64,000 nt of DNA from a virus (taxonomy: Duplodnaviria > Caudoviricetes): positions 26,107-90,106 of IMG/VR virus record IMGVR_UViG_3300021255_001460. One strand, 5' to 3'. The notes beneath the pieces are model-generated. The model ran no database searches. It was not told the DNA's origin and worked only from the letters and a program-made list of their open reading frames with translations. Both the position numbers and the translations under genes were made by a program. Positions 1-52,196 of this stretch are shown here, one piece after another. Position 1 is the first letter of the stretch. Each line of letters begins with the position of its first letter.

Positions 1-1
1 T

Positions 2-1294
2 CAGGTTGTGTATAGTCTCAATCAACCAGCCGCCGCAAGAGGTTCGCAGTCAGTATTTTGGAACATCGCATACCTAGACAAATACTATTTTGAACAGCTT
101 TTCGACGGCTTCGTTTTTCCTGATGGAACGGGTATGCAATGGGAGTCTGTGAGTTGGCTTCAGAAGGCATTCATGAAGTGGTTCAACAATGAGCGGCTCA
201 AGAATATTCTTACCTTCCCTGTCGAAACTCTGTCACTGCTGAATGATGGTAAAGAATATTGTGATAAAGAGTGGGCTGACTTCGCCGCACAAATGTACTC
301 AGAAGGACATAGCTTCTTTGTTTACACATCCGATAGCGTTGACAGTCTTGCCTCTTGTTGCCGCCTCAGAAATGGCATACAGGACAACCAGTTCTCGTAC
401 ACACTTGGTGCTGGCGGTGTTTCAACCGGAAGTAAGTGTGTTATGACTATCAATATCAATCGCCTTGTACAGAAAGCCATTATTGAACATCAGGCATATA
501 ACAAGGATCTTGATTACCAACTCAAGTTAATTGAAGACGCAGTGCGCGAACAGGTTCAGAAGATTCATAAGTATCTGATTGCATTCAACTCAATCATACT
601 CGATATGCGTGACAATCATATGATCTCGATTTATGATGCCGGGTTTGTTGCTCCAGAAAAGCAGTATCTGACGGTTGGTATTAATGGCGCTGTTGAAGGT
701 GCTGAATATCTTGCAATTAAGATTACCGATAATGATGATTATCAGAAATATATCAACGCTATTCTTCGCCCAATTAACGAGGAGAACAAAAAGAACCGCA
801 CTAAGGAAATCATGTTCAACACTGAGTTTGTTCCCGCAGAAAACCTTGGTGTAAAGAATGCAAAGTGGGATCTCAAGGATGGTTATTATGTGCCGCGAGA
901 TTGTTACAATTCTTACTTCTATATTGTGGAAGACGAAACAACCAATCCCATCGACAAGTTTAATCTGCACGGCAAGAAGTACACGCAGTTCTTGGACGGC
1001 GGCTCTGCTCTGCATTGTAATCTCGCAGAACATCTTTCCAAACAACAGTATGAGTTGCTGTTGAATTATGCTATCACAACGGGATGCAACTATTTTACAT
1101 TTAATATTCCGAATACCATTTGCAACAAGTGCGGCTATATCTCAAAGCACAAGTTGGATGTATGCCCAATATGTGGTAGTGAAGATCTTGATTATGCACT
1201 ACGCGTTATTGGGTATCTTGGACGAGTATCAAAATGGTCAATCGAACGTCAGGCAGAAGAAAAACGCAGATACTATGCGAAAGGAATCTCGTAA
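2..1294 (+). CDS. nrdD: Anaerobic (class III) ribonucleoside-triphosphate reductase, 5'-truncated by the window edge
   Basis: Frame is open from base 2. It has a C-terminal Zn-ribbon (CNKCG...CPICGS) and the glycyl-radical motif RVIGYL, and lies directly upstream of an activase. Confidence 0.93.
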   Translation, partial: QVVYSLNQPAAARGSQSVFWNIAYLDKYYFEQLFDGFVFPDGTGMQWESVSWLQKAFMKWFNNERLKNILTFPVETLSLLNDGKEYCDKEWADFAAQMYSEGHSFFVYTSDSVDSLASCCRLRNGIQDNQFSYTLGAGGVSTGSKCVMTININRLVQKAIIEHQAYNKDLDYQLKLIEDAVREQVQKIHKYLIAFNSIILDMRDNHMISIYDAGFVAPEKQYLTVGINGAVEGAEYLAIKITDNDDYQKYINAILRPINEENKKNRTKEIMFNTEFVPAENLGVKNAKWDLKDGYYVPRDCYNSYFYIVEDETTNPIDKFNLHGKKYTQFLDGGSALHCNLAEHLSKQQYELLLNYAITTGCNYFTFNIPNTICNKCGYISKHKLDVCPICGSEDLDYALRVIGYLGRVSKWSIERQAEEKRRYYAKGIS

Positions 1295-1779
1295 TGATTC
1301 TATTTCAGGGGTTTACTATTACATTCCAAGAAGTTCCAGATGAGATCAGTCTTGTCTTTAACATTGCTGATTGTCAGATGAGATGTAAAGGATGTCACTC
1401 GCCCAATCTACAAAAACATGAAGGCGATGTGTTACTTGATTATTTGCAACAAACAATTGATCAATATCGTGCCGCCATCACTTGTGTTTGCTTTATGGGT
1501 GAAGGTAATGATTATGACGGACTACTACAGTGCCGCCAGATTGTTGCCAATAATGGATTAAAAACCTGTCTCTATACCGGGGTTGACTCAACAAATCCCG
1601 GTGTAGATTATTGCGGCTGGGATTACATTAAAGTCGGACATTATGACGCAAGTAAAGGTGGTCTTGATTCCAAGACTACAAATCAGCGGATGTACAAACT
1701 TGTCGATGCCGCATACAAAGATATCACATACAGATTCCAAGAGAAGAATATGAATCTTGGTCGAATCGAGGTGAACTGA
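1294..1779 (+). CDS. nrdG: Anaerobic RNR activating protein (radical SAM)
   Basis: ATG overlaps the nrdD TAA. Motifs FQEVPDEISL, CQMRCKGCHS (CxxxCxxC), CVCFMGEG and YIKVGHY...GGLDSKTTNQRMY are typical. Confidence 0.92.
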   Translation: MILFQGFTITFQEVPDEISLVFNIADCQMRCKGCHSPNLQKHEGDVLLDYLQQTIDQYRAAITCVCFMGEGNDYDGLLQCRQIVANNGLKTCLYTGVDSTNPGVDYCGWDYIKVGHYDASKGGLDSKTTNQRMYKLVDAAYKDITYRFQEKNMNLGRIEVN

Positions 1780-2385
1780 ATGCCCGTCACATCATTCTCA
1801 GAACACATCAACGTAAATGATCTGGGTAAGGCTGGCACATTAACCTTGTAGTGCCTCGACCTGTCTATGCGTCGTCCGGGTTTCGCCGTAATCGAATACG
1901 ACAAAGAAACCCGCGCCACAAGGGTTGTCGAATCCTCAGTGGTTGACAACAAATCCACCAAGGCTTTAAGAACGCACGGACAGATGTTGCTTGCTACTGC
2001 CGCCGAACTCAGGCGCTACTTCGAGAAATACAAAGACCGCAAACTGATCCTTGCCAAAGAGGATGCGGTTATGTCTTACCGCAACATTAACACCAGTGTA
2101 ACCATCAGCAAAGTACACGGTGTTGCTGACATGATTGCCGCCGAGTATGGCTACTTCGATTTTCAAGGTATTGGCACAACCGCAATCAAAAAGATGTTAA
2201 CTGGTCGCGGCGATGCACAGAAGGACGAAGTGGAGCGCGGCACACGGGTCTTCATCGGACAGGAGTACGAATACCAATTCGATGATGAGTCCGACGCTGT
2301 GGCTGTTGGGCTGGCGTGGCTTATTCAGGGCGGCTTGCTCAAGATGCCGAAGAACTGGAAGCTTCCAGAAAAAGAAAATGGTTGA
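1780..2385 (+). CDS. ruvC: RuvC-like Holliday junction resolvase with an in-frame TAG at codon 24 (1849-1851)
   Basis: SD GAGGTG and an ATG abutting the nrdG TGA. The frame reads ...GTLTL*CLDLSMRRPGFAVIE..., then KEDAV, IKKMLTGRGDAQKDEV and DDESDAVAVG. The first catalytic Asp (CLDLS) lies upstream of the ORF-track start at 1867. Confidence 0.85.
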
Positions 2386-2393
2386 TCTCATTA

Positions 2394-2425
2394 AGGGGTT
2401 GTCGTTATGGCAACCCCTCTTTTTT
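2394..2425 (+). terminator. Intrinsic terminator after ruvC
   Basis: AGGGGTTGTC-gttat-GGCAACCCCT stem followed by a T-run. Confidence 0.75.
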
Positions 2426-2436
2426 ATTTGTCTGGA

Positions 2437-2498
2437 TGTAACAAATTTGTGTCATCGTGCCAGCCGCTTACCAAATCCACTATTTTTCCACATTACCT
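2437..2498 (+). promoter_or_regulatory. Conserved ~62-bp upstream element, copy 1
   Basis: TGTAACA-AATT-TGTGTCA..GTGCCA..CTTACCA..CACTATTTTTCCACATTACC closely matches the reverse complement of 55941-55998. Confidence 0.6.
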
Positions 2499-2518
2499 TA
2501 ATGAGGAGTGGAAAGGCG

Positions 2519-3079
2519 GTGATAGAGATTTCACACGACGAAGGCATTCCGTTCTGGAGATGCCGAGACTGTAAGTGGTGGTCGAAGCTACCCATGACTT
2601 CCAAGTGTCCATGCTTCGACTACCACTGGATTTGCCCAGCCCGTGACCCAGCCGCCATATTTGGTGGATTTACGTCGCACTGGCAAGGGTACACCAATGG
2701 GTCGCATCGAATTTGTGCGGCCTTTCAACCAACGCATGACCAGCAGTTCTGGGATGGGTTCGACTTCTACTACAACCACTACTGTCCAGAGGCTGGGCGA
2801 CATGTGATCATCCACCCTATCACGCCACTTGGTATTCACAGGAGCGGTGTGGATGATGTGTTTATCGTTCCCGAGATTGATTTCGTTGAGTGCAAAATCA
2901 TCAAGGGCGACAGGATTCGCTACCTGCATCACTATGAGCCGCGAACAACTTTTACCAAAACAAAGGCCGAAATGATCTCATCACAGCACGGGGGCGAAAT
3001 CATACTGGGCAAAGATTTTGTGCGGTTCGACTGGGATTATTACGGTAAGCCGCCAGAAGAGGAAAATGGATATGGTTAA
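2519..3079 (+). CDS. Hypothetical Cys-rich protein
   Basis: SD AAAGGCGGT and GTG start at 2519. Contains CRDC/CPC/C motifs. Confidence 0.7.
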   Translation: MIEISHDEGIPFWRCRDCKWWSKLPMTSKCPCFDYHWICPARDPAAIFGGFTSHWQGYTNGSHRICAAFQPTHDQQFWDGFDFYYNHYCPEAGRHVIIHPITPLGIHRSGVDDVFIVPEIDFVECKIIKGDRIRYLHHYEPRTTFTKTKAEMISSQHGGEIILGKDFVRFDWDYYGKPPEEENGYG

Positions 3080-3942
3080 GAGGCTGAACGGCAAACGTGG
3101 CCCAATCATTGTGCGCGAGTGGAAACATACGGTCGGTTGCCATGATGACTGGGGATCTGAGTACTACACTGTTGAGTATTGTGTGCGGCTCTTGCTCGAC
3201 CGACATGGGTTTAGCTGGTTAATTGAGGCTGGCGACTTTACATGCCACGAGAAGAAATTGATTGACTGCGCGGTGTTCGCTTTACAGGTTATGGAACAGT
3301 GTTCGCCGCGCTACAAACGATTGATGGATCATTTATTCAAAACCAGACTGATTGAAAGGTTGTAATTTATGACAGGCCGCGAACTGATTGAGTACATCCA
3401 GCGCCACAAACTTGAAGACTGTGTGGTCGAAGTCCAATACCGTGATGATGGCGGGTACTACTTCGGTACTGACCCAGAACCGATACTTTACAAGATCGAA
3501 GCACTTGAGGATGACAGGTGGGCTTACACAGTGCCGTTCGACAGGCTGATTTTATAAGGAGTACTTTGATGTTAAGACTTGATTATGACATTATGCACTG
3601 CGGCGACGAACTAAAGAAGTTGATTGCCGCACATCCTGACCTGCCTATCGTGTTCGAGGCAAATGATGAAGCAAACTTTGGCGATTATGAAGTGACGATC
3701 TGCACTAGTGTTCACGCCAGAATCGGCGAAATCCTTGATTGTCAGCAGGAGATCGCCGACGACTATATCTTCACCGACAGAGATCAGTTTGCGGATTGTG
3801 TTCAGGATTACATTTACGATACCAGCCCATATGATGACCGCCCAGATGATTATTACATACAGAAAGCAAAACAACTTGTCGAAAGCTACGAACCTTACTG
3901 GAAGAAGTGCATTCTTGTGACGGTCGGCAACTGAGGTGGATT

Positions 3943-4374
3943 ATGAGATACGGAAAATGGATTGACCCAGTTCCAGAAGGTGTTATGTACTGGGATGAAC
4001 GAGCGTATCAACAATGTTCGCTATGTGGCAAGAAGCAATTTCTATCATATGGGATGAAGTATTGTCCGCATTGTGGGGCAAGAATGGACGGCACTGAGGA
4101 TAAATATTGGATCAGCGTTCGTGATCGACTTCCAGTTATCGATGAAGATGTGCTGGTTTGCGCGGTTAACAAAACAACTGGCGAACAAAGCATCTTGATT
4201 ACAAGCATGGAAGATACGTTGTACTACGGCGCTAGTAATTCGGTAAAGATAGATCCAAGATGGAGAAGTCCGTACCAGTATTTTTCTGAAAACAATACGA
4301 TCACTCACTGGATGCCGCTTCCACAGCCACCAGACAAGGAGCAAGATCAAGATGAAAGAAAAGCTGACAAGTAA
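3943..4374 (+). CDS. Zn-finger plus DUF551-like protein
   Basis: CSLCG...YCPHCGARMD is followed by WISVRDRLP...ITHWMPLPQPP, the DUF551 signature. Confidence 0.75.
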   Translation: MRYGKWIDPVPEGVMYWDERAYQQCSLCGKKQFLSYGMKYCPHCGARMDGTEDKYWISVRDRLPVIDEDVLVCAVNKTTGEQSILITSMEDTLYYGASNSVKIDPRWRSPYQYFSENNTITHWMPLPQPPDKEQDQDERKADK

Positions 4375-7300
4375 TGAAATCATAAAGGTTCTGGACACAC
4401 TGATAGGGCCGACAGAAGCTATTGGAGACTCAGCCGCAGACCATACTATTGAACATAATCTCATGACTCTGATTGACATTGTGAACTGGTGTCTTGACGG
4501 CATAAGTTATAGCGCATCCACTAGACACAGGTTTGAAGCCAGTATGCGTGATGTGGGCGAACGGGCATTCGCCGCACTGGATGAGTGGCGAAACTGGCTG
4601 GACGAAAGGATCAAGGAGGACTAACAGTGGATACCGTGAACGCTCTCATGATGGGTGAAATGAATCGCGGCAAAGAAATGAAGGTCTTCGACTGGAACAA
4701 GGCGGCGAAGATCATCAAAGAAAGAGGAGCGCAAGAAGCCAGTGCTGGGTTAGCAGAGGATTATAGTTATACTGGTGGTTTTATTCTTTACAACGGTATG
4801 ATCATAAGAAATAGTTGTACATACCTAGCATCAACTTGGGCAACACCAACCCTGTATGTCGATAGCGAAGAGATTCCATGCTATGTTATGGAATCGCAAA
4901 CCAACTGGAATGAATACACAAGGTGGCCTGAGTCTGCGGTCAAAATATTGATGGGTGATAAGTATGACTAACATCGATAAGGTTATCGAAGGACTGGAAT
5001 GCTGTCAGTATTCTTCAAAGGCACATTGCGATGAATGCCCATATGTAAATGATGGTTTATGCAGTATCGACGCTTGTACTGCTGATTTAGCAAGCGATGC
5101 TCTTGACATGCTGAAAGAGCAGGAAGATACGCGCCTTATTTCAAGGAAGCCGTATCATACAAAGGTCGAATATGCGAACGGTGGCTCTTGGATTACTGAC
5201 CAATGCCCCGAGTGTGTGGAGCGCGGCGTTGGTATTTGGGACACGCTTGTTGATAGATACGTCAAGTATTGCCGTCGATGTGGTCAGGCCCTTGACTGGA
5301 GCGAGTATAACGACCGTGACAAGATAGACTGGGATGAATACATGAGCCATGTCGGAGAGCGTGCTAATCGCATAATTAAAAGACGGTGAAGTGAAAATGA
5401 CAAAGGAAGAAGCGTATCGTTATATTGACAATCTTAAATGGTTAAAGGGGTACGACAATACAACAATCGACGGAAAAACCGTTGGCGAGATATTGGACGA
5501 AATTAAAACTCTGCTGAAAGAGCAGGAAGCGAAACCAATGACAGAATACGACGATGGATGGGATTGCCCAAGATGCGGACTTAAACTTGTAGGAAAAACA
5601 GCAAGTGGATATCCGTATGATGAGTTGGATTTACCAAATGATGAAATTGTGAAGTATTGCCCAGTATGCGGACAGGCGGTGAAATTGGATGATTGACAAA
5701 CGGCAACTTATCGAATCGTTAACCATATGTATCAATGACGAATGCGATAAGTGTGTTTACAGAAACAAAGGCGAGTACTGTAGCCTTGCATTGCTCCATG
5801 ATGTCCGCGAACTATTAACAACTCAAGACGGTTACAGACCAGCCGACATCGTTCGTTGTAAAGACTGTAAATATGGATATATGCTACCAAATTCTAGCGA
5901 TTATGTTTACTGTACCAAACCATATAGCGGCACGACCTCACATAAACCTGATTGGTTTTGCGCTGATGGAGACAGGCGGTGAAGTAGGAATGAATACGAA
6001 AAAGAAAAACGCTTTATTCGGACGGTATCCATCGTGCGATATGCTCAACAATGCTCTGCGTTTTATCCATGAAGGGAAAATTGATGTTGCTTGTTCTGAG
6101 ATTGTTTTTGCCATTGAAAAAGCAGATGGATATTTCCATGAAGATATTGTACCTATTGTTGAAAAGATTAAAAGCGACTGGATGAAAACACATTAGGAAG
6201 GTCAGTGAAGTGGAATGACGCTACAGGTTGAACTTCAAGACTTGCGGAAAATGCTCAAAGAAAAATGCGAAGAGATTATCAGCGATAAAAAACTCGTATG
6301 CGAGTTTTATTGGAGAATCTGCGAAATCGAAGAAGATGATAGGTTCACGGTTGTAGATGATTTGCATGATGGGCAGTGAAGTGGAATGACTGATTCTGAT
6401 AAAACAAAAATAATAGATGGATTTGCATATTGGATTGAGAACGAGGAAAACGGGGTTTGTTATATTCCGTTGAATCTTTGCGAAAAAATTATGGAACTGC
6501 TGAAGGAGCAAGAAAAGGAAATCAAAGGTACGACAGCACTAGTTTCTTGGAACAGCAAGCTCTGGAACACAAGAGTGTAATAAGGAAGTGAGAATTTGTA
6601 CGGCGATTTAAACGATTGTTATGGACGAGCGTTACAACAGGAACTTGCTGAAGCAAACAGACTTGAGCATGAGTTGATCGAAGAATCGAACCGCGAAGCC
6701 GATGCTTATTACGCAGAAATGGCTCGTCTTGAAGAGCAGAATAAGATGGAGAGTGAGTCATGAAAGAAATTATCATTGAAGTCCATGATAACTTTGTTTG
6801 TACTAACGACGAAGTGATCAGATGTCGCAACTGTAAATGGTGGAGACAAGACAGTATTCAGCACAATGTAAATGATGGCGGCGAGTGGGATGACGCTTAC
6901 TGCGAACGTTTGTGTGATATAGATAGATGGGGCGATATCTTTGATATATACAAACGAACACCATCAGATTTCTATTGTGCCGCCGCTGAAAGGATAAGTA
7001 AATGAGAGAAGTCATTGTCGAAGTTCCTGACAACTATGCATTTAATCAAGAAGCTGTTCCCGTAAAAGGCAACCTAACTAGATGCAAGAACTGTATACAT
7101 GGTAGGCCGTACACCAATGGCATCATATGCGACAGAGATTTGTTTATTGTGCCAGAGGAGCATTATTGTGGTATGGCAAAGCCGAGGATGTATGAAAAGA
7201 AAGACTTGATCGTTCGTAGATCCATCACTATGATTGACGGAAAGCCGCATGTTGAGACATATTCGGAGCAACCGCTGATCAGATGTAAGGACTGCAAGCA

Positions 7301-9685
7301 CTATGGTGAACAGTGGAAGACATGTGAAGAATTTAACTATTGCCAAGTTCCAGAAGACTTTTATTGTGGTAATGCTGAAAGAAGAGATGAACAATGAAAG
7401 AACTTATAGTGCCGTTCACAGATGATGAGTTTGCATTCCACATGAAACACTATGGAGAATATCAGGAACTGATCAGATGCCGCGATTGCAAGTATTATAT
7501 TTTGGACGACAGGGATCATATGGTGTGTGACTACGATGAACGGATCAGATATCCAGAAGACTATTACTGTGCATCCGCAGAAAGAAGAGATGAACAATGA
7601 CCAAACTTGAAAAGGTCTTTGCAGGACTTAGCTGTCATAGCGTGGATAACCGCTGTTATGAATGTCCATACTCAGGTTCAAGTTATTGTTCCGAAGCACT
7701 GGCTCTTGATACTATAGAGGTAATATCACTATTACAAAATCAGATCGTAGATACAAAGTCATGCAAGACTTGTGCATATTATGATCGCTGTGATCCAAGT
7801 GCCGCATCTTGTTCACCTGAATTCAGAACGTTTGCAGAGTGTCGCGGAAGTGCGAAATGGAATTGGAAATGGAAAGGCGTGGATTTGGAATGACAATAAA
7901 AGAAGAGCCGCACAAAATCACTGCACATCTGGATGTTACAATCACTGGCAGATTTCACGACGATGAAGCTTCAGAAGAAACTGTTCGTCAATGTCTTGAG
8001 GAAGAGTTGAACGAATTATGGGAAGACGTTGAAGTGCGGTTGATTAAAGACGACAAACCAGCGGAAAACATCATATCAATACATTGCAAAGACTGTCTAT
8101 GGTGGCAACCGGGTTTTGTCTATGGTGAAAATTATTATCCACCACATTGTGACAAGACTGGTGCTGGGCGATCTTCCGATGACTCTTGTCCAGATGCAGA
8201 GATAGACTTTACGATAAGAGAGTTAGTATGAGGAGGCCAATAAGCCGTGTTCAGAGACTTGACAGAATTCGTGTGTGCGAAGTGCGGCGAAAGATTTCTT
8301 GCCTACACCTACGGTTGCGATCTTCAAATCGATCTCAAACGCGATGATTGGTTTTACGTAAGTAGTTGTCCGTCTTGCGGTGCTGATTGCTTAGCGCCTA
8401 TAGAATGATCTGAATATGCATGAAGAGTATCTCGCATCAATCGAGCATTTGGCAAAGAATTGATCCGATGTTTGGCGAAGAAAGGAAGAACAATGGATAG
8501 AGATGATGTAATCAAACGGCTTGAACGTGCTTGTCAACTCGTGTGGAACGGCGAACGTTGTAACATCAGGGGTGCTAATGATGCGCTGGATGTCGCTTAT
8601 GCGATACACGATGCGATAGCTTTGATTCAGAAACAAAAAGCAGTTAAGCCCGAATGGTGGCAAGGAAAAGCTTATTGTGGTGGCTGTGGCGCTAAATTGC
8701 CAAAAAAGAAATACAGTATGAATTTCTGCGGCAAGTGTGGACATATGATTGATTGGGGTGATGACTGATGGCGGTTCTGATTCGCGATATGGAGATGCCG
8801 AAGTCATGCATTTATTGTGTATTTTGTCATGAGTGTGAATGCATTCTGACTGGACAATATCCACTAGATGATGAACTTATAATAGGTTACATGGTTCACC
8901 CAGATGAGTGTCCGCTGGAAGAAGTAACATGGGTCGCTGGGAACGAGGTGAAGTAAATGAGTGATCCAAATTTTCCGATAATCGAAGGTGTGCGGCTGTT
9001 GAACATAACCACACATCTACCGGATTGGGCAGGCATAATTATAGCAATATTATCCGTCATTGGTGGTCTGTGCTTGTTGACGGTGCTTGGTGCGTGGGAA
9101 GACATGTCTATACGGAAGAAAACATGGATGTGCGCTATATCCGCAATAATGATATTCGGTGCATTACTGTTTGCCGTACTTGTACCCAAGCAGTCAGTTT
9201 ATCAATGCCTAGTCGATCCGTCTGTGAGTTATCAAAAGCTGACAGAGATATTTAATGTTATCGAACAGCACGGCGAGATCATTGATCTGATGCCCAAGTA
9301 ATGAGAAAGGAGCGGTGGAATGAAACTCTACCACACGACCCACGCATACGACCCTACAGTGCCAGAAGAAGATTTTGTGACAGAGTTTGAGATTGACGAG
9401 AAATTAACAATCTCACAACTCGAAGCGAAAGCAGGACTTGAACCAAACATCTGCTACTACAACCGGGCTTGCCTCGATGATGATGACTCCCCCACCCGCC
9501 TCATTATCGACTACGGCTCATGGAGTTGGTTCTTGGTTATTACTGGCACACAAGAAGAATTAAAGGAGTTGATAAATCTATGGTTTTCCAGACAGTAATG
9601 TATCTCGTTTTCGCGGTCAGTGGCCTCGCGCTTGGACTACTGATCGGCTACACCCGTGGCATTGAAGATTCGAGGAGGTACTGAG

Positions 9686-9955
9686 ATGAATCGTAAAGAG
9701 GTTCTTGAAGCCGCACAGACTTGTGTTTGCGGTAACCGTGAAGATGACTATGGTTCGCCCGAAAACAATTTCGCCCGTATCGCTAACCTGTGGAACGCTT
9801 ACCTTGGGGTGGACAAGATCAAACCCCATGATGTGGCGGCAATGTTGGCTCTGCTGAAGGTGGCACGGATCGCTTCCGAAGGTCACGGCAAAGCTGATAA
9901 TTGGATTGATCTCGCGGGGTATGCGGCTTGCGGGGGTGAACTACAGGATGTCTGA
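9686..9955 (+). CDS. DUF6378-like phage protein
   Basis: REDDYGSPENNFARIANLWNAYL...KVARI...DNWIDLAGYAACG pattern. Confidence 0.75.
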   Translation: MNRKEVLEAAQTCVCGNREDDYGSPENNFARIANLWNAYLGVDKIKPHDVAAMLALLKVARIASEGHGKADNWIDLAGYAACGGELQDV

Positions 9956-10769
9956 TTCTGACCTTGTGGTAAAGTTTACCCCAGCCAGTATCCGCGACAT
10001 GATCGACAACAATGGTTACGGCGATATAAAGGCCACACCATTTGTCCGCACAACAATCCTTGATAAAAACTTAATAGCATCGGCTAAACCTCATGAAGTT
10101 GTTTCCTGCCCTCACCTGCGGCTAAACAACTTCATTTTATTTGACGGCAAACCGATCAGTGAGTTCGCGCAAGATCCAAACTGGAAACCAGTTCCCAAGC
10201 CGCTACGAAGTCATCCACAGTACATGCAACTGCTGGAGCAAAGGTTCTCGCACAGCCCCGAGTACGACGAAGCAAGAGCCGCGCTGAAAACCATGCGCTC
10301 CGATTGCCCTGACGATATCTTAGCCGCATACAAGAAAGGCTGGATTGTTGAGGCGGCGGTATTAAAGCGCCAGCCCCGTATCACAATGGAGTTCAAGAAG
10401 GGCCTGACCGCATACAAAGCTGTGCGTGAACATGTCAGTTGGACGTTGCGCTACGCCGAAGAGCCGTCTGACTTCGCAACAGAAGTGTGTCAACTTTACG
10501 ATAGTTATGACAAGGCGCTAGAAGTGGCGAACGTGTTATGTGCCGACTGGATGGACTCAATGCTCCGTACCGCAGGAAAAGACTGGCGCGAGGATATCGA
10601 GTGGGCGCTTGAACGTGTGCCAGACAAGTACAAGATGAACGCACGACTGGCGCTTGACTTATGTCAACCAATACCGGGCGCTGTGATCCGGGTCTGTAAT
10701 AACAAGATCTATCGGCGCGAACGACAGGGCTACGAATGGTCTGTAATCTTTGATTGGGAGGATGAATAA
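9948..10769 (+). CDS. Hypothetical protein
   Basis: 273-codon ORF coupled to its neighbours; no motif recognised. Confidence 0.65.
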   Translation: MSDSDLVVKFTPASIRDMIDNNGYGDIKATPFVRTTILDKNLIASAKPHEVVSCPHLRLNNFILFDGKPISEFAQDPNWKPVPKPLRSHPQYMQLLEQRFSHSPEYDEARAALKTMRSDCPDDILAAYKKGWIVEAAVLKRQPRITMEFKKGLTAYKAVREHVSWTLRYAEEPSDFATEVCQLYDSYDKALEVANVLCADWMDSMLRTAGKDWREDIEWALERVPDKYKMNARLALDLCQPIPGAVIRVCNNKIYRRERQGYEWSVIFDWEDE

Positions 10770-11172
10770 GATGCTTGGTGATTTGACGGGTACATACACT
10801 TGTGATCTGATTATGGTCATTCTCGCGGTATGTGCTGGTGTCCATTGGATTATTGGAGCAATCATTGGCGACGACGATGACGATGATGACGACGATGAGG
10901 AGTAAATGATATGACGAAAGCAAATGCAGAGCAGTGGCGATCTGGTGAGGCTGGCGCTTGTGGCCTGTGCCGCCGCGAAAAGTATTGCCACAAACCTTGC
11001 CTGAATAACAAGGAGAGACTTGCCACCATTGCTGTCAGAATGCTCGAACAACTGGGCAAAGATCCCGAGTTTGATGATAAGGTTGCTGGAGTGCTTACGG
11101 TTGCGAACCAGCTTGCTAAGAGTGCCATTATGATCAAAAACATGAACCTTGGTCTGGACGAGGAGCAGAGCG

Positions 11173-11916
11173 ATGAAGTTTAAGGATTTCGACAAACAGA
11201 TGCGGCAGTACGAACTAGTCCGCGACACGTTTATCCCTATGGGCGGCTACACAGTTGTGCGGCTTGATGGACGTAGTTTCTCGAAGTTAACCAACCGCAA
11301 AGGATATGCCAAGCCGTTCGATGATCGGTTCAAAGATGCGATGTCACAGGTTGCCGCAGAACTCATGAAGTGCGGCTTTGATGTGCGGTTCGTCTACGTG
11401 CAGTCTGACGAGATCAATATCTTGTTCGACGATGAATGTACCACATTCAACCGCAAGGAGCGCAAGTGGTTGTCGATACTGGCTGGGGTCGCCTCTTCTG
11501 TGATGTCGCACTGTATCAACTGCATGGCGGTATTTGATGCTCGTGTGATCTGGTTGCCCGACGAAGAAGCTTGCAACCACTATTTTGCTTGGCGGCAAGG
11601 AGATAGTGAGCGCAACTGTCTGAACAGTTACTGCTACTGGACATTGATCAACACTGGCATGAGCAAGTACAAGGCCGCATCAAAGCTGGATCACATGAAG
11701 TACGACGATAAGCTGGATCTGCTCACACAGTACGGTATTAACTATGATGCCGTTCCCATCTGGCACAAGTATGGATACGGGTTCTATTGGAAGCAGTACG
11801 AGAAGACTGGTCGCAATGGCGAGAAAGTTACCCGGATGCGAGTGTGGCGAGATGAGGAGTTGCCGCACTTCAAATTTACATTGGAGACTATAAAACAAAA
11901 TGAGTCACACGATTGA
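11173..11916 (+). CDS. tRNA(His) guanylyltransferase Thg1-like 3'-5' polymerase
   Basis: VVRLDGRSFSKLT...KPFDDRF, YVQSDEINILF, FNRKERKW.S, VFDARV and YFAWRQ.D..RN.LN motifs. Confidence 0.9.
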   Translation: MKFKDFDKQMRQYELVRDTFIPMGGYTVVRLDGRSFSKLTNRKGYAKPFDDRFKDAMSQVAAELMKCGFDVRFVYVQSDEINILFDDECTTFNRKERKWLSILAGVASSVMSHCINCMAVFDARVIWLPDEEACNHYFAWRQGDSERNCLNSYCYWTLINTGMSKYKAASKLDHMKYDDKLDLLTQYGINYDAVPIWHKYGYGFYWKQYEKTGRNGEKVTRMRVWRDEELPHFKFTLETIKQNESHD

Positions 11917-13051
11917 AGATCTTAATACACTGGTAGCACTGCCCCACCCACATAAAGTAGCACTCACGAAGGAACGCATCAAGGAGTGGTATGATCACTG
12001 GGACGGCAACGTTTATGTTTTATTTTCTGGCGGCAAGGACAGCACGGTTCTGCTCCACATTGTTCGCCAGATGTACCCGGAAGTAAAGGCCGTCTTCAGC
12101 AACACAGGTCTTGAATATCCTGAGACTGTTAAGTTTGTGAAGTCTTTCGATAACGTAGACCTTGTTCGCCCCAAGATGACGTTTGCCGACGTAATCACAA
12201 CCTATGGTTATCCCATCATCAACAAGGAAACAGCAGAGACAATCCATTATGCACGGTCACGAGATCCGCGCCAAGAAGCAACTGCCAGACGCAAACGGGA
12301 AGAACTTCTTGGTCAGCGGATTTACGTTGACCCAAGTGGGAATGATCCGCGCATCAATTACAACAAGCGACCATTTGCCGATACCGCAGAATCAAAGGGG
12401 CGGCTCAGTAAATATAACAAGGACAAGTGGTTGCCGCTCTGTATGGAAGCGCCATTCAAGATCTCCCACTACTGTTGCGAGATCATGAAGAAGTCGCCAA
12501 TGGGTATCTATGACCGCCGAAGTGGTTTGTATCCTATGGTTGGCACAATGACAGAAGAAAGTAGATTGCGGCGAGGGGCATGGCTCAGACACGGATGCAA
12601 TGTGTACGAAGCGAAACATCCGGTTAGCCAGCCTCTTTCTTTCTGGACAGCGCAGGACATCCTGTACTACATCAAGGAAAACAATCTGCCCATCTGCTCA
12701 TTGTACGGCGACATTGAGGTTAACCAGTTTGGCGAACTCTACACCACTGGTTCATCCCGGCTGGGTTGCTCTGCCTGTCTCTTCACACTACACCGCGAAA
12801 CCAAGGGCGACACAAGATTCCAAGTTATGAAGCAAACCCATCCAAAGCTTTATGAGTTCTGTATGGGCGGCGGTCAGTGGATCGATAATCCCGACTATGA
12901 TCCCACCTATGACGGCACACCGGATGATATTGGCTGGGTTTATTGGAATCCACCAAAGCTGTGGATACCGTCAAAGGAAGGGCTTGGAATGAAGTTTGTC
13001 CTTGATTTCGTGAACGACATTTATGGAAAACGGTTTTGCCGCTATGAATGA
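11900..13051 (+). CDS. PAPS-reductase-family (PP-loop) protein with Fe-S Cys motifs
   Basis: FSGGKDSTVL, FSNTGLEYPET, HYCCEIMKK and RLGCSAC. Confidence 0.88.
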   Translation: MSHTIEDLNTLVALPHPHKVALTKERIKEWYDHWDGNVYVLFSGGKDSTVLLHIVRQMYPEVKAVFSNTGLEYPETVKFVKSFDNVDLVRPKMTFADVITTYGYPIINKETAETIHYARSRDPRQEATARRKREELLGQRIYVDPSGNDPRINYNKRPFADTAESKGRLSKYNKDKWLPLCMEAPFKISHYCCEIMKKSPMGIYDRRSGLYPMVGTMTEESRLRRGAWLRHGCNVYEAKHPVSQPLSFWTAQDILYYIKENNLPICSLYGDIEVNQFGELYTTGSSRLGCSACLFTLHRETKGDTRFQVMKQTHPKLYEFCMGGGQWIDNPDYDPTYDGTPDDIGWVYWNPPKLWIPSKEGLGMKFVLDFVNDIYGKRFCRYE

Positions 13052-13286
13052 AAATGAACTTGAGATTCTCCCCTGTTACAAATGTGGTTCGCACAACGTG
13101 ATGCTCAACACATGTGCGTCCACCATTATGTGTGTCGAGTGTCTGGCAAAGAGTCCACCTTTCAGACTGCCAGATGGGCGACGCAAGAAGATGTCAAAAG
13201 AAACTGTGATTAAGGCTTGGAATAGCGTACCACGAAAAGCTATTCCGCGAAAAAGTGAGGATAATACCAATGGACATCAGACATGA
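13044..13286 (+). CDS. Small Zn-finger protein (Lar-like)
   Basis: LPCYKCG...CVEC...AWN pattern. Confidence 0.6.
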   Translation: MNENELEILPCYKCGSHNVMLNTCASTIMCVECLAKSPPFRLPDGRRKKMSKETVIKAWNSVPRKAIPRKSEDNTNGHQT

Positions 13287-14370
13287 ATTTCCGTTCTTTG
13301 AGAAAACCGATGTGACCTATCTCGACTCTGCCGCCACAACTCAGAAGCCATATAAAGTGATAGACAGCATCGTACAATCCTATTCAGAATTCAACGCCAA
13401 TCCGGGAAGGGGTTCGCACACCCTTTCCCTTTTTGCTACCTCTCGTTACGAAAAGGCGAGAGAACATGTTGCGGCCTTCTTCGGTTGCGATCCTGACGAA
13501 CTGATCTTTACGTCGGGCGCTACTGAATCGCTCAACATTATTGCCAAAAATCTCTCCCCACTTACCCGCCACGTAAACTTCGCCACCGCACCATTTGACC
13601 ACCACTCTTGCATTCTCCCTTGGTTCTATTGCTACGACAGCGAAGACATGACAACCAAACCGTTCAAGTCTGTGGATGTTTATACAGTGGTGTCCAACGT
13701 AATTGGCGATGTGAAACTGCCGCATCAAGAACATACAGAGGATAGAGTTGTTGTTGCGGATCTGACCCAAGCTGTCGCCCACATGCCGATCAACCTGCAC
13801 GAGATGAGCATTGATTGCGCGGCCTTCTCTGCCCACAAGATGTATGGCCCAATGGGAGTTGGTTGCCTATACATCAAACGGGATCTCCAGAAGTATTTTA
13901 TCAACATTAACTATGGTGGCGGCATGGTAGAGGATCTGGTGGACGAAGAGTTCAGGTTCAAATCTGGGCCGCAAAAATTTGAAGCTGGCACAAGAGATGT
14001 TGCCGGGGTAGTCGCCCTTTCTGCGGCTTGTTCATTCCTCGAGCAGTATGGCTGGATAAACATCATGGCTCACGAGAAAGACCTGATGGATCATCTGCTC
14101 TACGAGTTTGCACAGGATGACCGCATCGAAATTTATGGTCACAACCAGCAGAGTCTCGTGTCGTTCAATGTGCGCGGCTTTCACTCATCTTATGTTTCCG
14201 ACCACCTTGATGGCTGGAACATTGCAATCCGGGCTGGGCATATGTGTGCGCTGAACACCATGAGGGCGCTCGACATCGACTCTTGTTGCCGTGTAAGTCT
14301 GGGCATCTACAACACACACGAAGATATTGATTATCTCGCAAGATCACTGAAGGAGTTGAAAGAAGAATGA
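13270..14370 (+). CDS. Cysteine desulfurase (SufS/class V PLP enzyme)
   Basis: YLDSAATTQKP, FTSGATESLN, AFSAHKMYGPMGVG, FEAGT, AIRAGHMCA and RVSLGIYNT. Confidence 0.92.
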   Translation: MDIRHEFPFFEKTDVTYLDSAATTQKPYKVIDSIVQSYSEFNANPGRGSHTLSLFATSRYEKAREHVAAFFGCDPDELIFTSGATESLNIIAKNLSPLTRHVNFATAPFDHHSCILPWFYCYDSEDMTTKPFKSVDVYTVVSNVIGDVKLPHQEHTEDRVVVADLTQAVAHMPINLHEMSIDCAAFSAHKMYGPMGVGCLYIKRDLQKYFININYGGGMVEDLVDEEFRFKSGPQKFEAGTRDVAGVVALSAACSFLEQYGWINIMAHEKDLMDHLLYEFAQDDRIEIYGHNQQSLVSFNVRGFHSSYVSDHLDGWNIAIRAGHMCALNTMRALDIDSCCRVSLGIYNTHEDIDYLARSLKELKEE

Positions 14371-15413
14371 GACATCTCGCAAGTATACAGAAGATCTGGA
14401 AGATTGAACCTATCGAAGGCGCTGACCGCATCGAACTGATCCATGTGTGTGGCTGGCAGTGTGTGGCAAATAAAGGCCAGTTCAAGCCTATGGACAACGC
14501 CATCTATTTTGAAATTGATAGCTTCCTGCCGATCCGACCTGAGTTTGAATTCCTGCGCTCATCCAGCTACAAAAAGACCGACATTATGGGCGAAGGCTTC
14601 AGACTCCGCACCATGAGGTTCAAGGGGCAGATCTCTCAGGGTCTTGTCCTGCCGCTGAGTATGTTCCCGGAGATTGATCCCGGCACAGAAGTTGGCGTGG
14701 ATGTAAGTCAGGCACTGGGGGTGAAGAAGTGGGAAGTCGAAGAACGTGCAACAACGCAAGGCACAATTATTGGCACACTGCCGCCATCAATCCCAACAAC
14801 TGATGAATCGAGAGTGCAAGAATGTCCTGAGCTAATCCAAGACTTCGGCAACCTTGAATTCTATATCTCCAGCAAGATGGATGGCACATCCTGCTCTGTC
14901 GCCATTGATGAGGATGGCTGGCATGTGTGCGGTCACCACTATGAGTACGCCGATGATGGCAAGTCCTCATTCTACAACTTCATCAATAATCTTGGTCTGC
15001 GCGAAAAGATGGAAAAGTATGTTAAGGAGATGGGCTATAAATCGCTCGTGATCCAAGGCGAGTTCTGCGCTCCCGGCATTCAGAAGAATCCGCTGAAACT
15101 AATAAAACCTGAGTGGTATGTGTTCACAATCCGTGTTGATAACAAGCGTGTCGGACTCATCCCCATGCAAACCATCTGTCACGAACTTGGGCTGACCCAT
15201 GTGCCAATCGAAGAAGTCGCCAACAATCTGAGCGCCCACTACCCAACCGTTGAAGCGCTCCTCGCCCGTGCTGAACAGGGTACATATCCGAGCGGCAGTA
15301 TGAAAGAGGGCATCGTGATCCGACCAACCGAGCCAGTCTATTGTCCGCGCATCAGTGCTTCCCTGTCCATGAAAGTTGTCAGCAATAAGTATCTGTTGAA
15401 GAAAGGTGAATAA
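14367..15413 (+). CDS. RNA ligase (DRB0094/Rnl2-like)
   Basis: N-terminal RHLASIQKI...PIEGADRIE, KMDGTS adenylation motif, QGEFCAPGIQKN, EGIVIR and KVVSNKYLL. Confidence 0.88.
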   Translation: MRHLASIQKIWKIEPIEGADRIELIHVCGWQCVANKGQFKPMDNAIYFEIDSFLPIRPEFEFLRSSSYKKTDIMGEGFRLRTMRFKGQISQGLVLPLSMFPEIDPGTEVGVDVSQALGVKKWEVEERATTQGTIIGTLPPSIPTTDESRVQECPELIQDFGNLEFYISSKMDGTSCSVAIDEDGWHVCGHHYEYADDGKSSFYNFINNLGLREKMEKYVKEMGYKSLVIQGEFCAPGIQKNPLKLIKPEWYVFTIRVDNKRVGLIPMQTICHELGLTHVPIEEVANNLSAHYPTVEALLARAEQGTYPSGSMKEGIVIRPTEPVYCPRISASLSMKVVSNKYLLKKGE

Positions 15414-15984
15414 GATGCCAAAGAAACCGGAAGACATTGAACTGGAAGAGCAGAATATCTTTTGCCGCATACCAAAGAACACATTCAAAATGAAAATTGA
15501 ATGTGTCGTCATTATTGGCGGCAAAGAGCAGAAGGTACACAAAGAATTAATGCTCGACGAGATAAATAAAGCACGGGAAGATTTTCTTGAGTATGTCGAA
15601 GATGGCGACGACTATGATGCCCGCTATGAACTAACAGATGAAGGCCGCAAACTATTGGAGCAGATGCGAAATGATAAACTCTTGTGATTGGTGTGGTAAC
15701 CAGCATCTCAAGGTGAATATTTTAACCGACTACATTACGGTGGACGAAAAGCATTATGTGTGCGGCAGAGGAGTGGTGTATTGCCCGATCTGTGGAGCGA
15801 CCTATACCAAGTGCGACGCATACACCCAACTGTTCGACCCGATCCTGCCCAGCATGATAACCGACACAACGCATCGTTTACGTGTTGGAATTCTCAATGA
15901 ATTAACTGCATAAAACACCCCCATCAGCCGCCTCTCGTGTGGTTGGTGGGGATTTACTTTACCTTTTTCTGGAGGCGATTTGAC

Positions 15985-17151
15985 ATGCAAAAACTCAATG
16001 ATTATACTGGGGTCGAGATGAACCTTGAAAACTGCAAAGCGGATACAGACAAGGGGGCTATCTCTATGGCGACAGCGAGAATCCGGTTACCCATTACACT
16101 ACCAATTGTCGGCAAAGTATGGATGACAGGCCGCACATATCAGGAAGCGGTGACAAACCTCATGGCGAAGTATGCGTGGCTTTATCCAGACAGCGCACCA
16201 CCAGTAAGCGCAAAGTTCACAACGCCACAAACTCCCACAGTACGCGAGATGGGCGAACGATGGATTGCAGAAGATGTTGATCAGCGTGTGGGCGAAGCAA
16301 GACTGAGAAATTTGAGCCGCACACTATTGAACCATATCTATCCCATCATTGGAGAAACACATGTCGGGGATATTAAGTTCAGCGAGGCAAATCAGTTCTA
16401 TATGCGTTTCAATGGATATGGCGTTGGTGTTGTCAGAAATATCAAAACCTGTATGAGAGGTATCTTTGACTTCTGTATTGATTGCGGCATAGTGGACGAG
16501 AATCCGTTCCGTAACGGACATTTGAAAGTCCGCAACGTTAAGCCTTGCGAGACACGCGAACCCATACCTGACCGCGATCTGATTGCCGCACTCAATAAGT
16601 TAAACAACTTAAACTTCCAGCAACTTACCGCTTTTCTATTTGGCCTCTATGCTGGTCTTCGTTCTGGTGAGGTGTTCGCGCTACGATGGGAAGATGTTCA
16701 TCTTGAAACACCGGGCAAAGAATATGTGTCGATTAGCAAAACAACAGCCTATGACAGGAATCTTCATACGATCATAAAGTCACCGAAGACAAAGGCTGGT
16801 GTGCGAAATGTGCCACTTAACGCGACAATTGTTGAACATTTGAAAAAAGTTGACCCCTTAAACCGCTCTGGTTATATCCTACACAAGAGGGGCAATACAG
16901 AATGTTATATAGCGAAGAACAGTGCCACACGTACATGTAAAATTGCGCTGTGTAATATTGGGCTTGGTCAGTACACATTCCACCAGTTGCGGCACACTTT
17001 TGCGACCAAGATGCAACCGCACACAGATGTCAAAACCTTGCAGTACCTTATGGGGCATAGCAGTGCGTCAATCACGTTGAACACCTATGCCGCACTCGAT
17101 GTGACCCAGTTGGAGAAGACAAGGGATGTACAATTCGTGTTTGCCAGTTGA
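15985..17151 (+). CDS. int: Tyrosine integrase
   Basis: GLRSGEVFAL, KTKAG, HQLRHTFAT, MGHSS and TLNTY catalytic residues; SD GGAGG. Confidence 0.9.
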   Translation: MQKLNDYTGVEMNLENCKADTDKGAISMATARIRLPITLPIVGKVWMTGRTYQEAVTNLMAKYAWLYPDSAPPVSAKFTTPQTPTVREMGERWIAEDVDQRVGEARLRNLSRTLLNHIYPIIGETHVGDIKFSEANQFYMRFNGYGVGVVRNIKTCMRGIFDFCIDCGIVDENPFRNGHLKVRNVKPCETREPIPDRDLIAALNKLNNLNFQQLTAFLFGLYAGLRSGEVFALRWEDVHLETPGKEYVSISKTTAYDRNLHTIIKSPKTKAGVRNVPLNATIVEHLKKVDPLNRSGYILHKRGNTECYIAKNSATRTCKIALCNIGLGQYTFHQLRHTFATKMQPHTDVKTLQYLMGHSSASITLNTYAALDVTQLEKTRDVQFVFAS

Positions 17152-17605
17152 CAACTTTGTTGATGGTATATGGTGGCGAGAATCGTTGCGGCAGTAAGAG
17201 TTTCGGCGATTGGTAATGTACATGGTTGTTGACACAAAACTGGCATTTATGCATATATGCATATTTTATTGCATAAATATACAGTGTCAAACAAAAGTCA
17301 AATAATGTCAACAAAGAAAAAGAACCGTTACAAACAAATAGATTTGAAAAGCATTGATCTTTCTTCACTTTGACCTTCAAATCAAAATTGTTGCACTTTT
17401 CTACTGAAACAGATACATGTATAAATATACATAATATTTCCACGTATCCGCTTTGCATATTTCAAGGGGAAGACTTGTTTCAGCCAATGATTTCGTTAGT
17501 TGAACCAAGTCCTGCTCAAACAAAAATAAGCCCTGTTAACAAGATTTATTTCTCGTTAACAGGGCTTTTGTTATTGTCAAAGATCTTATGTTATTATAAA
17601 TCTTC

Positions 17606-17634
17606 TTGACAATCTGTGCGTTAAACTTTATCAT
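17606..17634 (+). promoter_or_regulatory. Sigma70-type promoter for the shufflon recombinase
   Basis: TTGACA-17 bp-TATCAT. The spacer contains GCGTTAAAC, part of the crossover repeat. Confidence 0.6.
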
Positions 17635-17765
17635 AAAAAGAGCGTCAGCGTGTACCAGACGCTTGCGCTCTTATATGGTGAAAGATGTGGGGTAAGCACA
17701 TCCAACACAAAGGGAATTGTAACACATCCTTTCACCAATATCAATATATGGGAGGATGTGTTTTT

Positions 17766-18764
17766 ATGTCCAATAATTCCGAATCTTTCCGCAACGAATT
17801 GGTAACACGGCTGTTTGACCAGATTCCGCAGGAGCAACTCAAGAACGTGATCTCAATCCTTGACGCAACCATGAGTAGCTACGACATTACTCGCAAGCCT
17901 GTCGAACTGATTCCCGCCAACGGTCTTCCAGAAGTTGTGAAGTATTTTCTCGCCAGTAAAGCGGTGGAAAATCTCAGCCGCAAAACGTTGAAGATCTACA
18001 AACTTCGCCTTGAAGATTTCTTCGCGACGGTACGCAAACCTTTTCAGGATATCCGCGCTAATGATATCAGGCTATACTTGTACTACTACAAAGACCAGCG
18101 TCACGCATCAGATGCTTACCTTGACGACATCCGCAGAATCCTCAACTCGTTCTTTTCTTGGCTCGTCAATAACGAGTACCTGCTCAGAAACCCTTGTGCC
18201 ACCGTTGACCGCATCAAGTATCAAACAAAAGAAAGAGAACCTTTAACCGCATATGAACTTGAAGTCCTGAGATGGAACTGTAAGAATGTGCGCGAAAAGG
18301 CTCTGGTAGATTTTCTGTATTCAACTGGTGTTCGTGTCAGTGAGTGTCATGATATCAACCTGTCAGACATTGATTGGGATAGACGGTCGGTCATTATTCA
18401 ACACGGTAAAGGCAACAAGCGCAGGACTGTTTTCTTCAATGCTGAGTCAGAGTTGTCGTTAAGGAAATACTTGGAGTCGCGGTCTGACGATAACGATGCG
18501 CTGTTCGTTTCTATTCGTAATCCGCACAACAGATTATGTGTACGGGCATTGGAAAGCATTATTACGAAGGTTGCCGCCCGTTGTAATATGCATGTGTTCC
18601 CGCACAAACTTCGCCACACATTCGCAACCAGTGGACTTCATGGCGGCATCTCTCTGGAGAAGCTTCAGGCATTGATGGGTCACGCGAAGCCTGAGACTAC
18701 GCTGATCTATGCAAAGCTTGATAGTATGGATCTCCAGAGAGAACACCAAAGAGTCTATGCTTAA
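17766..18764 (+). CDS. XerD-like tyrosine recombinase (invertase of the adjacent tail-fibre switch)
   Basis: STGVRVSE, HGKGNKRR, FPHKLRHTFAT, LMGH and TLIYA motifs; adjacent to a 14-bp inverted repeat pair. Confidence 0.88.
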   Translation: MSNNSESFRNELVTRLFDQIPQEQLKNVISILDATMSSYDITRKPVELIPANGLPEVVKYFLASKAVENLSRKTLKIYKLRLEDFFATVRKPFQDIRANDIRLYLYYYKDQRHASDAYLDDIRRILNSFFSWLVNNEYLLRNPCATVDRIKYQTKEREPLTAYELEVLRWNCKNVREKALVDFLYSTGVRVSECHDINLSDIDWDRRSVIIQHGKGNKRRTVFFNAESELSLRKYLESRSDDNDALFVSIRNPHNRLCVRALESIITKVAARCNMHVFPHKLRHTFATSGLHGGISLEKLQALMGHAKPETTLIYAKLDSMDLQREHQRVYA

Positions 18765-18791
18765 TTGCTTTATTTTTGGCGGTTTGGTCTT

Positions 18792-19049
18792 GCGTTAAAC
18801 AGCAATATTCAGACGATGCAAAACAACCAAATCAAATATATGGATATAACAGATACTACACCGGTAAATGTCAACTCGAAAAGTGGGCAAGTTATAACCA
18901 TCAATAATTTTATCGGTTACGCCGCACTAACTAACGGGGTATTGCCCATGCCTTATACGAACAGCGGTGTCCAATACATTAAACTTGTAAACTACAACGA
19001 CCTATCCGCTTTTTCCGGGTCGGCAACTATACGAGTTTGGTATAGATAA
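18792..19049 (+). CDS. Silent alternative C-terminal cassette of the small tail-fibre/receptor-binding protein
   Basis: ALNSNIQTMQNN...ATIRVWYR* begins at the repeat, has no start or SD of its own, and ends in a fibre-like aromatic terminus. Confidence 0.75.
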   Translation, partial: ALNSNIQTMQNNQIKYMDITDTTPVNVNSKSGQVITINNFIGYAALTNGVLPMPYTNSGVQYIKLVNYNDLSAFSGSATIRVWYR

Positions 19050-19056
19050 TCAGCAA

Positions 19057-19162
19057 TTAAGCGGGTGAGGATTTGCACCTCACAACTGTCGCTCCATTGG
19101 GGTCTTATCGACAATTTCCCCCAGCGCTTTCGGAGTGCGTCTACCTATTCCGCCACCGCTCA
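19057..19162 (-). ncRNA. tRNA-like structured RNA without a canonical anticodon arm
   Basis: 7-bp acceptor TGAGCGG/CCGCTTA, Leu-like D arm GGCGGAATAGGTAGACGC, T arm GTGAGG-TGCAAAT-CCTCAC, and a central domain with nested stems and an 8-bp pseudoknot. Confidence 0.7.
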
Positions 19163-19175
19163 ATTCATTATACAA

Positions 19176-20405: not shown

Positions 20406-20427
20406 TGGTGTCACCCTACCTTATCTT

Positions 20428-52163: not shown

Positions 52164-52196
52164 TTGAGCCGCAACAAATATAATTTGCGGCTTTGT

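Follow-up and report, generated by a model that had tools for sequence, protein, structure and literature searches.

A RuvC resolvase gene carries an amber codon, probably read as leucine, in a ruminant-gut phage

Introduction

Can a resolvase gene whose frame is interrupted by an amber codon just ahead of its first catalytic residue still yield an active enzyme and, if so, which amino acid would the codon encode and what would the interruption be for? This question is raised by a RuvC-type Holliday-junction resolvase gene in a ruminant-gut phage known from a 90,106-bp IMG/VR virus record (IMGVR_UViG_3300021255_001460; 78% complete according to CheckV). The DNA under study, hereafter “the window”, is the whole 64,000-nucleotide stretch at positions 26107–90106 of that record, and coordinates refer to the window unless stated otherwise. 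A preliminary description of this DNA had proposed that the catalytic aspartate of the resolvase can be reached only via amber read-through, and that debranching of replicated DNA is tied to the same switch as packaging. Here, we evaluate both proposals from the gene and its predicted product, the fate of the TAG codon in relatives, the tRNA and amber codons found elsewhere in the genome, and TAG use across five syntenic phages.

Results

The read-through frame encodes a complete RuvC

When TAG is taken as sense, the RuvC gene spans 1780..2385 on the plus strand (201 codons) and is the final gene of an NrdD / NrdG-like / RuvC run. Its ATG at 1780 abuts the TGA of the ORF at 1234–1779, 22 sense codons precede a TTG, and the order from there is TTG, TAG (1849–1851), TGC, CTC, GAC (1858–1860), CTG, TCT, and ATG (1867). 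Between this TAG and the GAC there is no in-frame ATG, GTG, or TTG, just as the preliminary description had it. A table 11 ORF listing contains only 1867–2385 (172 aa), compared to 1780–2385 (201 aa) for the TAG-as-sense ORF, and standard-code gene callers choose the ATG at 1867..1869 (+), i.e., Met30 of the longer product, as the start. The RuvC translation start is the ATG at 1780. A 6-nt Shine-Dalgarno sequence (GAGGTG, 1768..1773, +) lies 6 nt ahead of it, and none was found for the ATG at 1867 in the same genome-wide survey, which recovered Shine-Dalgarno sequences of at least 5 nt at 57 of 103 predicted gene starts vs 11 of 1134 internal in-frame start codons. At the other end of the gene, an intrinsic-terminator-like element (2394..2428, +), consisting of an 11-pair hairpin (2394–2418) and a T-run, is found 9 nt past the stop codon.

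The preliminary description had suggested an alignment to RuvC-like families, and here Pfam, PHROG, AlphaFold2, Foldseek, and the catalytic tetrad all agreed on RuvC. Residues 27–178 of the read-through protein matched positions 5–146 of the Pfam profile PF02075 (RuvC; 40.6 bits vs a cut-off of 22.2), with residue 27 falling on profile position 5, the catalytic Asp, and a six-frame search of the genome with the RuvC profile gave 41 bits. For phrog_159 (“RuvC-like Holliday junction resolvase”), the E value was 1e-17 with the long form and 2e-14 with the short form. Four residues, D27, E94, D169, and D172, were invariant in an alignment of 18 full-length homologues and paired with D7, E66, D138, and D141 of E. 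coli RuvC (1HJR) in a PDB profile search. All are encoded on the plus strand: Asp27, the first catalytic residue, by the GAC at 1858..1860, Glu94, the second, by the GAG at 2059..2061, and Asp169 and Asp172, the third and fourth, within GAT GAG TCC GAC at 2284..2295.

The AlphaFold2 model of the read-through protein (pLDDT 86.5) begins with a low-confidence tail of ~19 residues and places strands at residues 20–27, 34–41, 46–54, 89–94, and 129–131, in the β1-β2-β3-α-β4-α-β5 order of an RNase-H-like fold. Foldseek returned RuvC for all of the top 10 matches, the closest solved structures being the RuvC of Pseudomonas, Deinococcus, Thermus, and E. coli (TM 0.81–0.84). Since β1 corresponds to residues 20–27, the TAG at codon 24 (1849..1851, +) lies in the middle of this strand, three residues N-terminal of the catalytic Asp. 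Only the read-through product includes the complete catalytic tetrad, while the product of ATG 1867 lacks both strand β1 and Asp27. The proposal that the catalytic Asp is reached only through the amber codon is thus borne out by the sequence and by the RuvC profile and alignment alike, and the gene at 1780–2385 is an intact RuvC-type resolvase gene written in the phage’s private code, and its product, as a RuvC, is predicted to cleave four-way junctions as a Mg-dependent dimer. A second RuvC, RusA, or Endo VII was not found in the 90 kb, although with a record that is 78% complete these absences are weak.

The amber codon is conserved in independent sequences

The TAG could mark a gene that is decaying or dispensable and has acquired a nonsense mutation, or the functional product could be the 172-aa protein from ATG 1867, as implied by standard-code public gene calls: database cluster P0002 was called from Met30, and P0003, P0005, P0013, and P0014 begin at the same “MRRPGFA” Met. 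The preliminary description had held that a sense codon in close relatives would indicate such a mutation. Instead, G001, an independent IMG/VR contig (33 kb, ~95% nucleotide identity), retains TAG at the same RuvC codon, with synonymous changes on both sides: within codons 11–29, 7 of the 8 altered codons are synonymous, and codons 4–10, in the disordered tail, vary freely and are still open. Contigs from four ruminant-gut runs (separate studies; sheep, cattle, and other gut) span the TAG, with no change to it among the differences listed. The frame upstream of the TAG is also open in four metagenome variants besides G001, and in one variant it is kept through compensating +1/−1 differences at 1795/1798. 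A contig from an RNA library spans 1773–1979, which is not proof of transcription.

Relatives also carry the amber codon elsewhere in this gene. Across 73 IMG/VR RuvC sequences, TAG occurs at 10 different internal alignment columns, 9 of which fall within the first 77 residues. Alongside the retention in G001, the open upstream frame, and a short product that would lack β1, Asp27, and a Shine-Dalgarno sequence, this recurrence largely refutes a nonsense mutation or a functional short form, to which we assign a very small probability. Even less credible, to the point of being negligible, is an assembly or sequencing error, given that the same codon is present in the independent contig G001 and unchanged, among the differences listed, in contigs of four separate studies.

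Separately, we considered a dominant-negative short RuvC produced by re-initiation at ATG 1867, 15 nt past the TAG. This candidate was rejected because the central strand β1 would be missing, the ATG has no Shine-Dalgarno sequence, and Met30 (M or L) is found family-wide and is not specific to TAG-bearing genes.

The genome encodes a cognate tRNA and other amber-interrupted genes

The sole tRNA of the genome (52066..52163, −; Rfam tRNA 44.8 bits) has an anticodon loop UUCUAAA and hence the anticodon CUA, which reads UAG. It was detected by Rfam/Infernal only and missed by ARAGORN, and displays a discriminator A73 and a 7-bp hairpin in the variable region. The tRNA gene is located upstream of HNH-like, TerL, and portal genes on the same strand. 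A tRNA(CUA) is also encoded by four syntenic genomes, G002 (97 kb), G003 (119 kb), G004 (85 kb), and G005 (108 kb), there as an ordinary tRNA of 76–80 nt, and in 5 of 5 genomes the HNH-TerL-portal block follows the tRNA gene on the same strand, at a distance of ~0.1 to a few kb. Compared to the tRNA of G003, the one studied here is alike in its acceptor stem, G1-U72, and T arm, with ~22 extra nucleotides (the hairpin) in the variable region. Judging from sequence, this insert would be a class-I to class-II-like conversion of the suppressor tRNA. The tRNA(CUA) of the relatives has no long variable arm, so structure by itself does not readily reveal a “leucine body”. A 15-nt anticodon-arm pattern searched over the viral collection gave 100 matches, mostly unrelated, and was not used.

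Around the tRNA gene, a weak sigma-70-like site (GTGAAA, 17 nt, TATATT) at 52177–52205 (−) ends 14 nt ahead of the tRNA, and a GC hairpin without a T-run lies between an SbcD-like gene and the tRNA gene. Promoter-like matches, in this region too, were no commoner than in shuffled sequence. In the plus-strand arm, a four-gene run at 11149–15413 (+) comprises a Thg1-like tRNA-His guanylyltransferase, a PAPS-reductase-like gene, a phrog_12787 gene, and an RNA ligase; it may be a tRNA repair/maturation module in a phage dependent on one special tRNA.

In-frame TAG codons in this genome occur in packaging, virion, and lysis-related genes, and replication genes are without them. Examples include TerL (codon 7), a tail-tube-like virion protein (codon 18), Dit (codon 20), a GIY-YIG endonuclease (codon 43), and the portal (codon 55), for all of which homology extends across the TAG or upstream of the next possible start. 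The genome thus combines two features by which recoded phages are recognized, i.e., in-frame stops in conserved genes with homology on both sides and a phage tRNA matching the recoded stop. Of its 14 in-frame TAGs, 12 occur no later than codon 55, and the affected genes usually have a single one. The bases 3′ of the in-frame TAGs have no common context. A release-factor gene was not found in the 90 kb, a weak absence in a record that is 78% complete.

Since TAG also terminates some genes, e.g., an integrase, the code is mixed. The suggestion that RuvC is the only interrupted gene of the left plus-strand arm holds within the window (1–19400) and fails for the whole genome: the arm extends 26 kb left of the window, where tail-fibre-like ORFs with early TAGs and an integrase with a real TAG stop are found. 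At this locus (genome coordinates 7725–9770, left of the window), the tyrosine integrase ends in TAG with an AAA_24 / phrog_1366 gene in frame 7 codons on, so amber suppression there would fuse the two proteins. Two closely spaced tyrosine-recombinase (integrase-family) genes, at 15937–17151 and 17685–18764 (+), are located at the end of the plus-strand arm. The left part of the genome contains a third.

Several other loci were noted in the course of this survey. In a small gene at 5873–6208 (+), a TAG at 6194 stands three codons ahead of the TGA, and G001 has a Ser codon at that place. A likely lysis cassette at 19974–21285 (−) includes a small hydrophobic protein whose codon 25, in a membrane-helix-like stretch, is TAG, and an adjoining NlpC/P60 + SH3 endolysin-like gene that is TAG-free. 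The GIY-YIG gene, of the homing-endonuclease type (39323–39958, −), adjoins the tail-tube-like gene.

TAG pairs with leucine in homologous proteins

Among the other 70 RuvC sequences, the column of codon 24 is occupied by Leu in 56, Phe in 9, Ile in 3, Val in 1, and Trp in 1, and the nearest relative free of TAG at this column (G002, 54% identity) has CTG. A similar pattern was found genome-wide. When 38 pairs of homologous genes from this genome and G002 were compared, Leu stood opposite TAG in 12 of 25 cases (background 7.5%, p = 7e-8), one of L, I, V, M, or F did so in 20 of 25 (p = 3e-8), and Gln in a single case. The Leu codons opposite TAG were mostly CTG, CTT, and CTC, each separated from TAG by two substitutions, so that this is not a mutational-neighbour effect. 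In G002, G003, and G005, 43–52% of TAG positions paired with Leu, and Gln accounted for 2–3% across the clade, in counts that are not independent.

Based on the Leu-rich, non-polar RuvC column and on the genome-wide excess of Leu over Gln, TAG probably stands for Leu in this phage, not Gln, and codon 24 of RuvC would be read accordingly as Leu. Our confidence in this assignment is limited to about 70% since the phage TAG recodings found in the literature searched are all to Gln (PMC9523058, PMC10607447). Gln is also the meaning of TAG in published code 15, as assumed by gene callers and earlier papers, and the TAG of the G004-type RuvC does stand opposite Q in its nearest database relatives. 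Here, however, TAG did not align with Gln in homologues as code 15 would have it: the RuvC column is 80% Leu and corresponds to a buried β1 position with no polar residue among the 70 sequences, Gln is rare opposite TAG both in the comparison with G002 and across the clade, and a hydrophobic, membrane-helix-like stretch elsewhere is interrupted by TAG (VGVIA-TAG-IGVVV). We consequently regard Gln as highly improbable.

Amber codons are enriched in RuvC across five syntenic phages

We next compared TAG use across the five syntenic genomes (this one and G002–G005). Gene calling treated TAG as a sense codon, and genes were assigned labels from their homologues in this genome. Every one of the five has in-frame TAG in RuvC, at codons that differ: 24 in this genome, about 54 in G002, 27, 36, and 72 in G003, 33 and 38 in G005, and 34 in G004. 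A TAG at +1 from the catalytic Asp is common to the RuvC of G003 and G005. When the five genomes were pooled, RuvC displayed 9 TAG in 954 codons (9.4 per 1000), virion and packaging homologues 85 in 38092 (2.2 per 1000), and replication homologues 5 in 15391 (0.32 per 1000), i.e., a TAG density in RuvC ~4 times that of virion genes and ~29 times that of its replication neighbors, for genomes that share ancestry. Fisher tests, in which this shared ancestry is ignored, yielded p = 1e-8 for RuvC vs replication genes and p = 5e-4 for RuvC vs virion genes. With the same disregard of ancestry, virion/packaging genes were denser in TAG than replication genes (2.23 vs 0.32 per 1000, p = 6e-8), RuvC being the exception.

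The primase/helicase, DNA polymerase, PD-(D/E)XK exonuclease, NrdD, NrdG-like, RNA ligase, and AAA_24 genes were essentially TAG-free in all five genomes. In replication-class genes, the few TAGs that did occur fell at codon ≤25 or at the very C-terminal end, positions that probably lie beyond the bounds of the real gene. In G004, all virion/packaging genes compared were TAG-free, and RuvC carried one TAG. This genome encodes RuvC at 10107–10670 (−), a virion block at 60868–85201 (+), a tRNA(CUA) with an encoded CCA end, and ~10 in-ORF TAGs; it may represent an early or reverting stage of recoding, in which TAG is possibly decoded otherwise. The five-genome TAG counts describe codon usage rather than timing.

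A proposed timing gate on RuvC and its neutral alternative

Taken together, the best overall explanation, to which we give a probability of roughly 75%, is that RuvC is interrupted by TAG but intact, that tRNA(CUA) reads the codon as Leu, and that the resolvase would rise with the packaging genes. Specifically, tRNA(CUA) would place leucine at codon 24, a step with strong comparative support, and yield a 201-aa RuvC with the full D27-E94-D169-D172 tetrad. When charged tRNA(CUA) is too scarce, the host release factor would stop translation at a 23-residue peptide and no active resolvase would be formed. Because a phage tRNA reads the TAG, active RuvC is probably made only once this tRNA is present. 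With the tRNA gene located at the head of the packaging block, production of the resolvase is proposed to increase in step with that of terminase and portal. A branch-cutting nuclease would be kept off replicating, recombining DNA until packaging needs debranching. The proposal that debranching sits on the same switch as packaging is sustained in one respect, since RuvC carries TAG in 5 of 5 genomes, while its timing component is suggested by gene content and synteny.

A stronger form of this idea can be put forward more tentatively, at somewhat short of even odds: in a clade reading TAG as Leu, RuvC would be the most stringently amber-gated gene and the sole TAG-bearing gene of the replication operon, a dedicated safety catch protecting recombination-dependent replication intermediates until packaging. 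The main rival is that read-through is real and not regulatory, with TAG acting as a rare synonym for Leu that drifts into any gene translated while tRNA(CUA) is present, RuvC being expressed in the middle or late phase under no selected gate. Such drift would be consistent with TAGs scattered through gene bodies like ordinary codons in G002, G003, and G005, with the turnover of RuvC TAG positions among relatives, and with the lack of a common context 3′ of the TAGs. It does not readily accommodate the excess of TAG in RuvC over both virion genes and replication neighbors (pooled, with shared ancestry), or G004, which retains the TAG in RuvC when the virion/packaging genes compared have none; both argue against it. 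Likewise, in the present genome the early position of the TAGs, mostly one per gene, is more in keeping with a gate than with drift or a code changed throughout. On balance, we consider neutral drift the less likely reading, and favor a resolvase that is probably read through as Leu and may be timed with packaging.

Discussion

Amber-bearing RuvC recurs in five related phages, which may point to recoding as a general means of restraining resolvases. Standard gene callers produce a 172-residue RuvC without its first catalytic residue, and code-15 callers place Gln in a buried strand; if TAG is Leu, both annotations of RuvC are wrong. The locus also offers a compact and testable case of a private codon that would control one dangerous enzyme, involving a single codon and a single tRNA and open to a simple activity assay. 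More broadly, the notion of recoding as a late-gene timer, put forward for lysis and virion genes and for Gln, would be extended to DNA processing and to Leu.

A leucine meaning for TAG has a counterpart in mitochondrial codes 16 and 22, where TAG is Leu in chlorophycean algae (NCBI tables). The codon and its proposed meaning are the same here. However, in codes 16 and 22 the reassignment is organelle-wide, whereas in this phage it would be virus-borne, partial, and probably time-dependent, within a standard-code host. Widespread use of Shine-Dalgarno sequences, together with the nearest cultured phages, points to a Firmicute host, these phages being distant Firmicute phages (TerL <30% identity to Clostridium phage c-st).

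The closest parallels are recoded gut phages with their own tRNA-Sup(CUA), which include crAss-like, Lak, Garnet, Amethyst, Topaz, and phAss-1 phages (Borges et al., bioRxiv 10.1101/2021.08.26.457843; Peters et al., PMC9523058; PMC10607447). Borges et al. found recoded stops in structural and lysis genes with replication genes in standard code, proposed a role in timing, and described a recoded intron endonuclease inside an early gene; their text makes no mention of resolvase, Holliday, or recombination (10.1101/2021.08.26.457843). The present phage is similar in its in-frame TAGs in structural, packaging, and lysis genes, its standard-code replication genes, and its phage-encoded CUA tRNA. 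The timing block on late or dangerous proteins proposed for those phages is the same idea as proposed here, and the GIY-YIG gene with TAG at codon 43 (39323–39958) resembles the recoded intron endonuclease of Borges et al. It differs in that TAG pairs with Leu instead of Gln and that genes in this genome mostly contain a single TAG, close to their 5′ end. Unlike the cases of Borges et al., the gated gene here would be a junction resolvase within the replication operon.

As a protein, the resolvase is close in architecture to bacterial RuvC (E. coli 1HJR, T. thermophilus 4LD0, P. aeruginosa 6LW3), with which it shares the RNase-H-like fold, and the Asp-Glu-Asp-Asp tetrad is conserved relative to both these enzymes and the RuvC of Lactococcus phage bIL67 (4KTW). 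It is distinguished from them by ~20% identity, a poorly conserved 19-residue N-terminal tail, and one structural codon that is TAG.

In terms of regulation, phage T4 provides the nearest analogy. The ribosome-binding site of T4 gene 49 is masked by an RNA hairpin in the early transcript, and its product, Endo VII, has an HNH-type fold. Translation of this junction resolvase gene (gene 49, endonuclease VII) is reportedly delayed, a finding attributed to Barth et al. in 1988. In both phages, a debranching nuclease required for packaging, with a gene transcribed alongside earlier ones, would be withheld at a post-transcriptional step, as is proposed here, and nested long and short products are possible. 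In contrast to T4, the block in this phage would consist of a stop codon readable only with a phage tRNA, and the enzyme is RuvC rather than HNH-type. Overall, the phenomenon belongs to a known kind, phage stop-codon recoding, and what is probably new is the proposed gating of a RuvC resolvase, by a TAG that is probably read as Leu.
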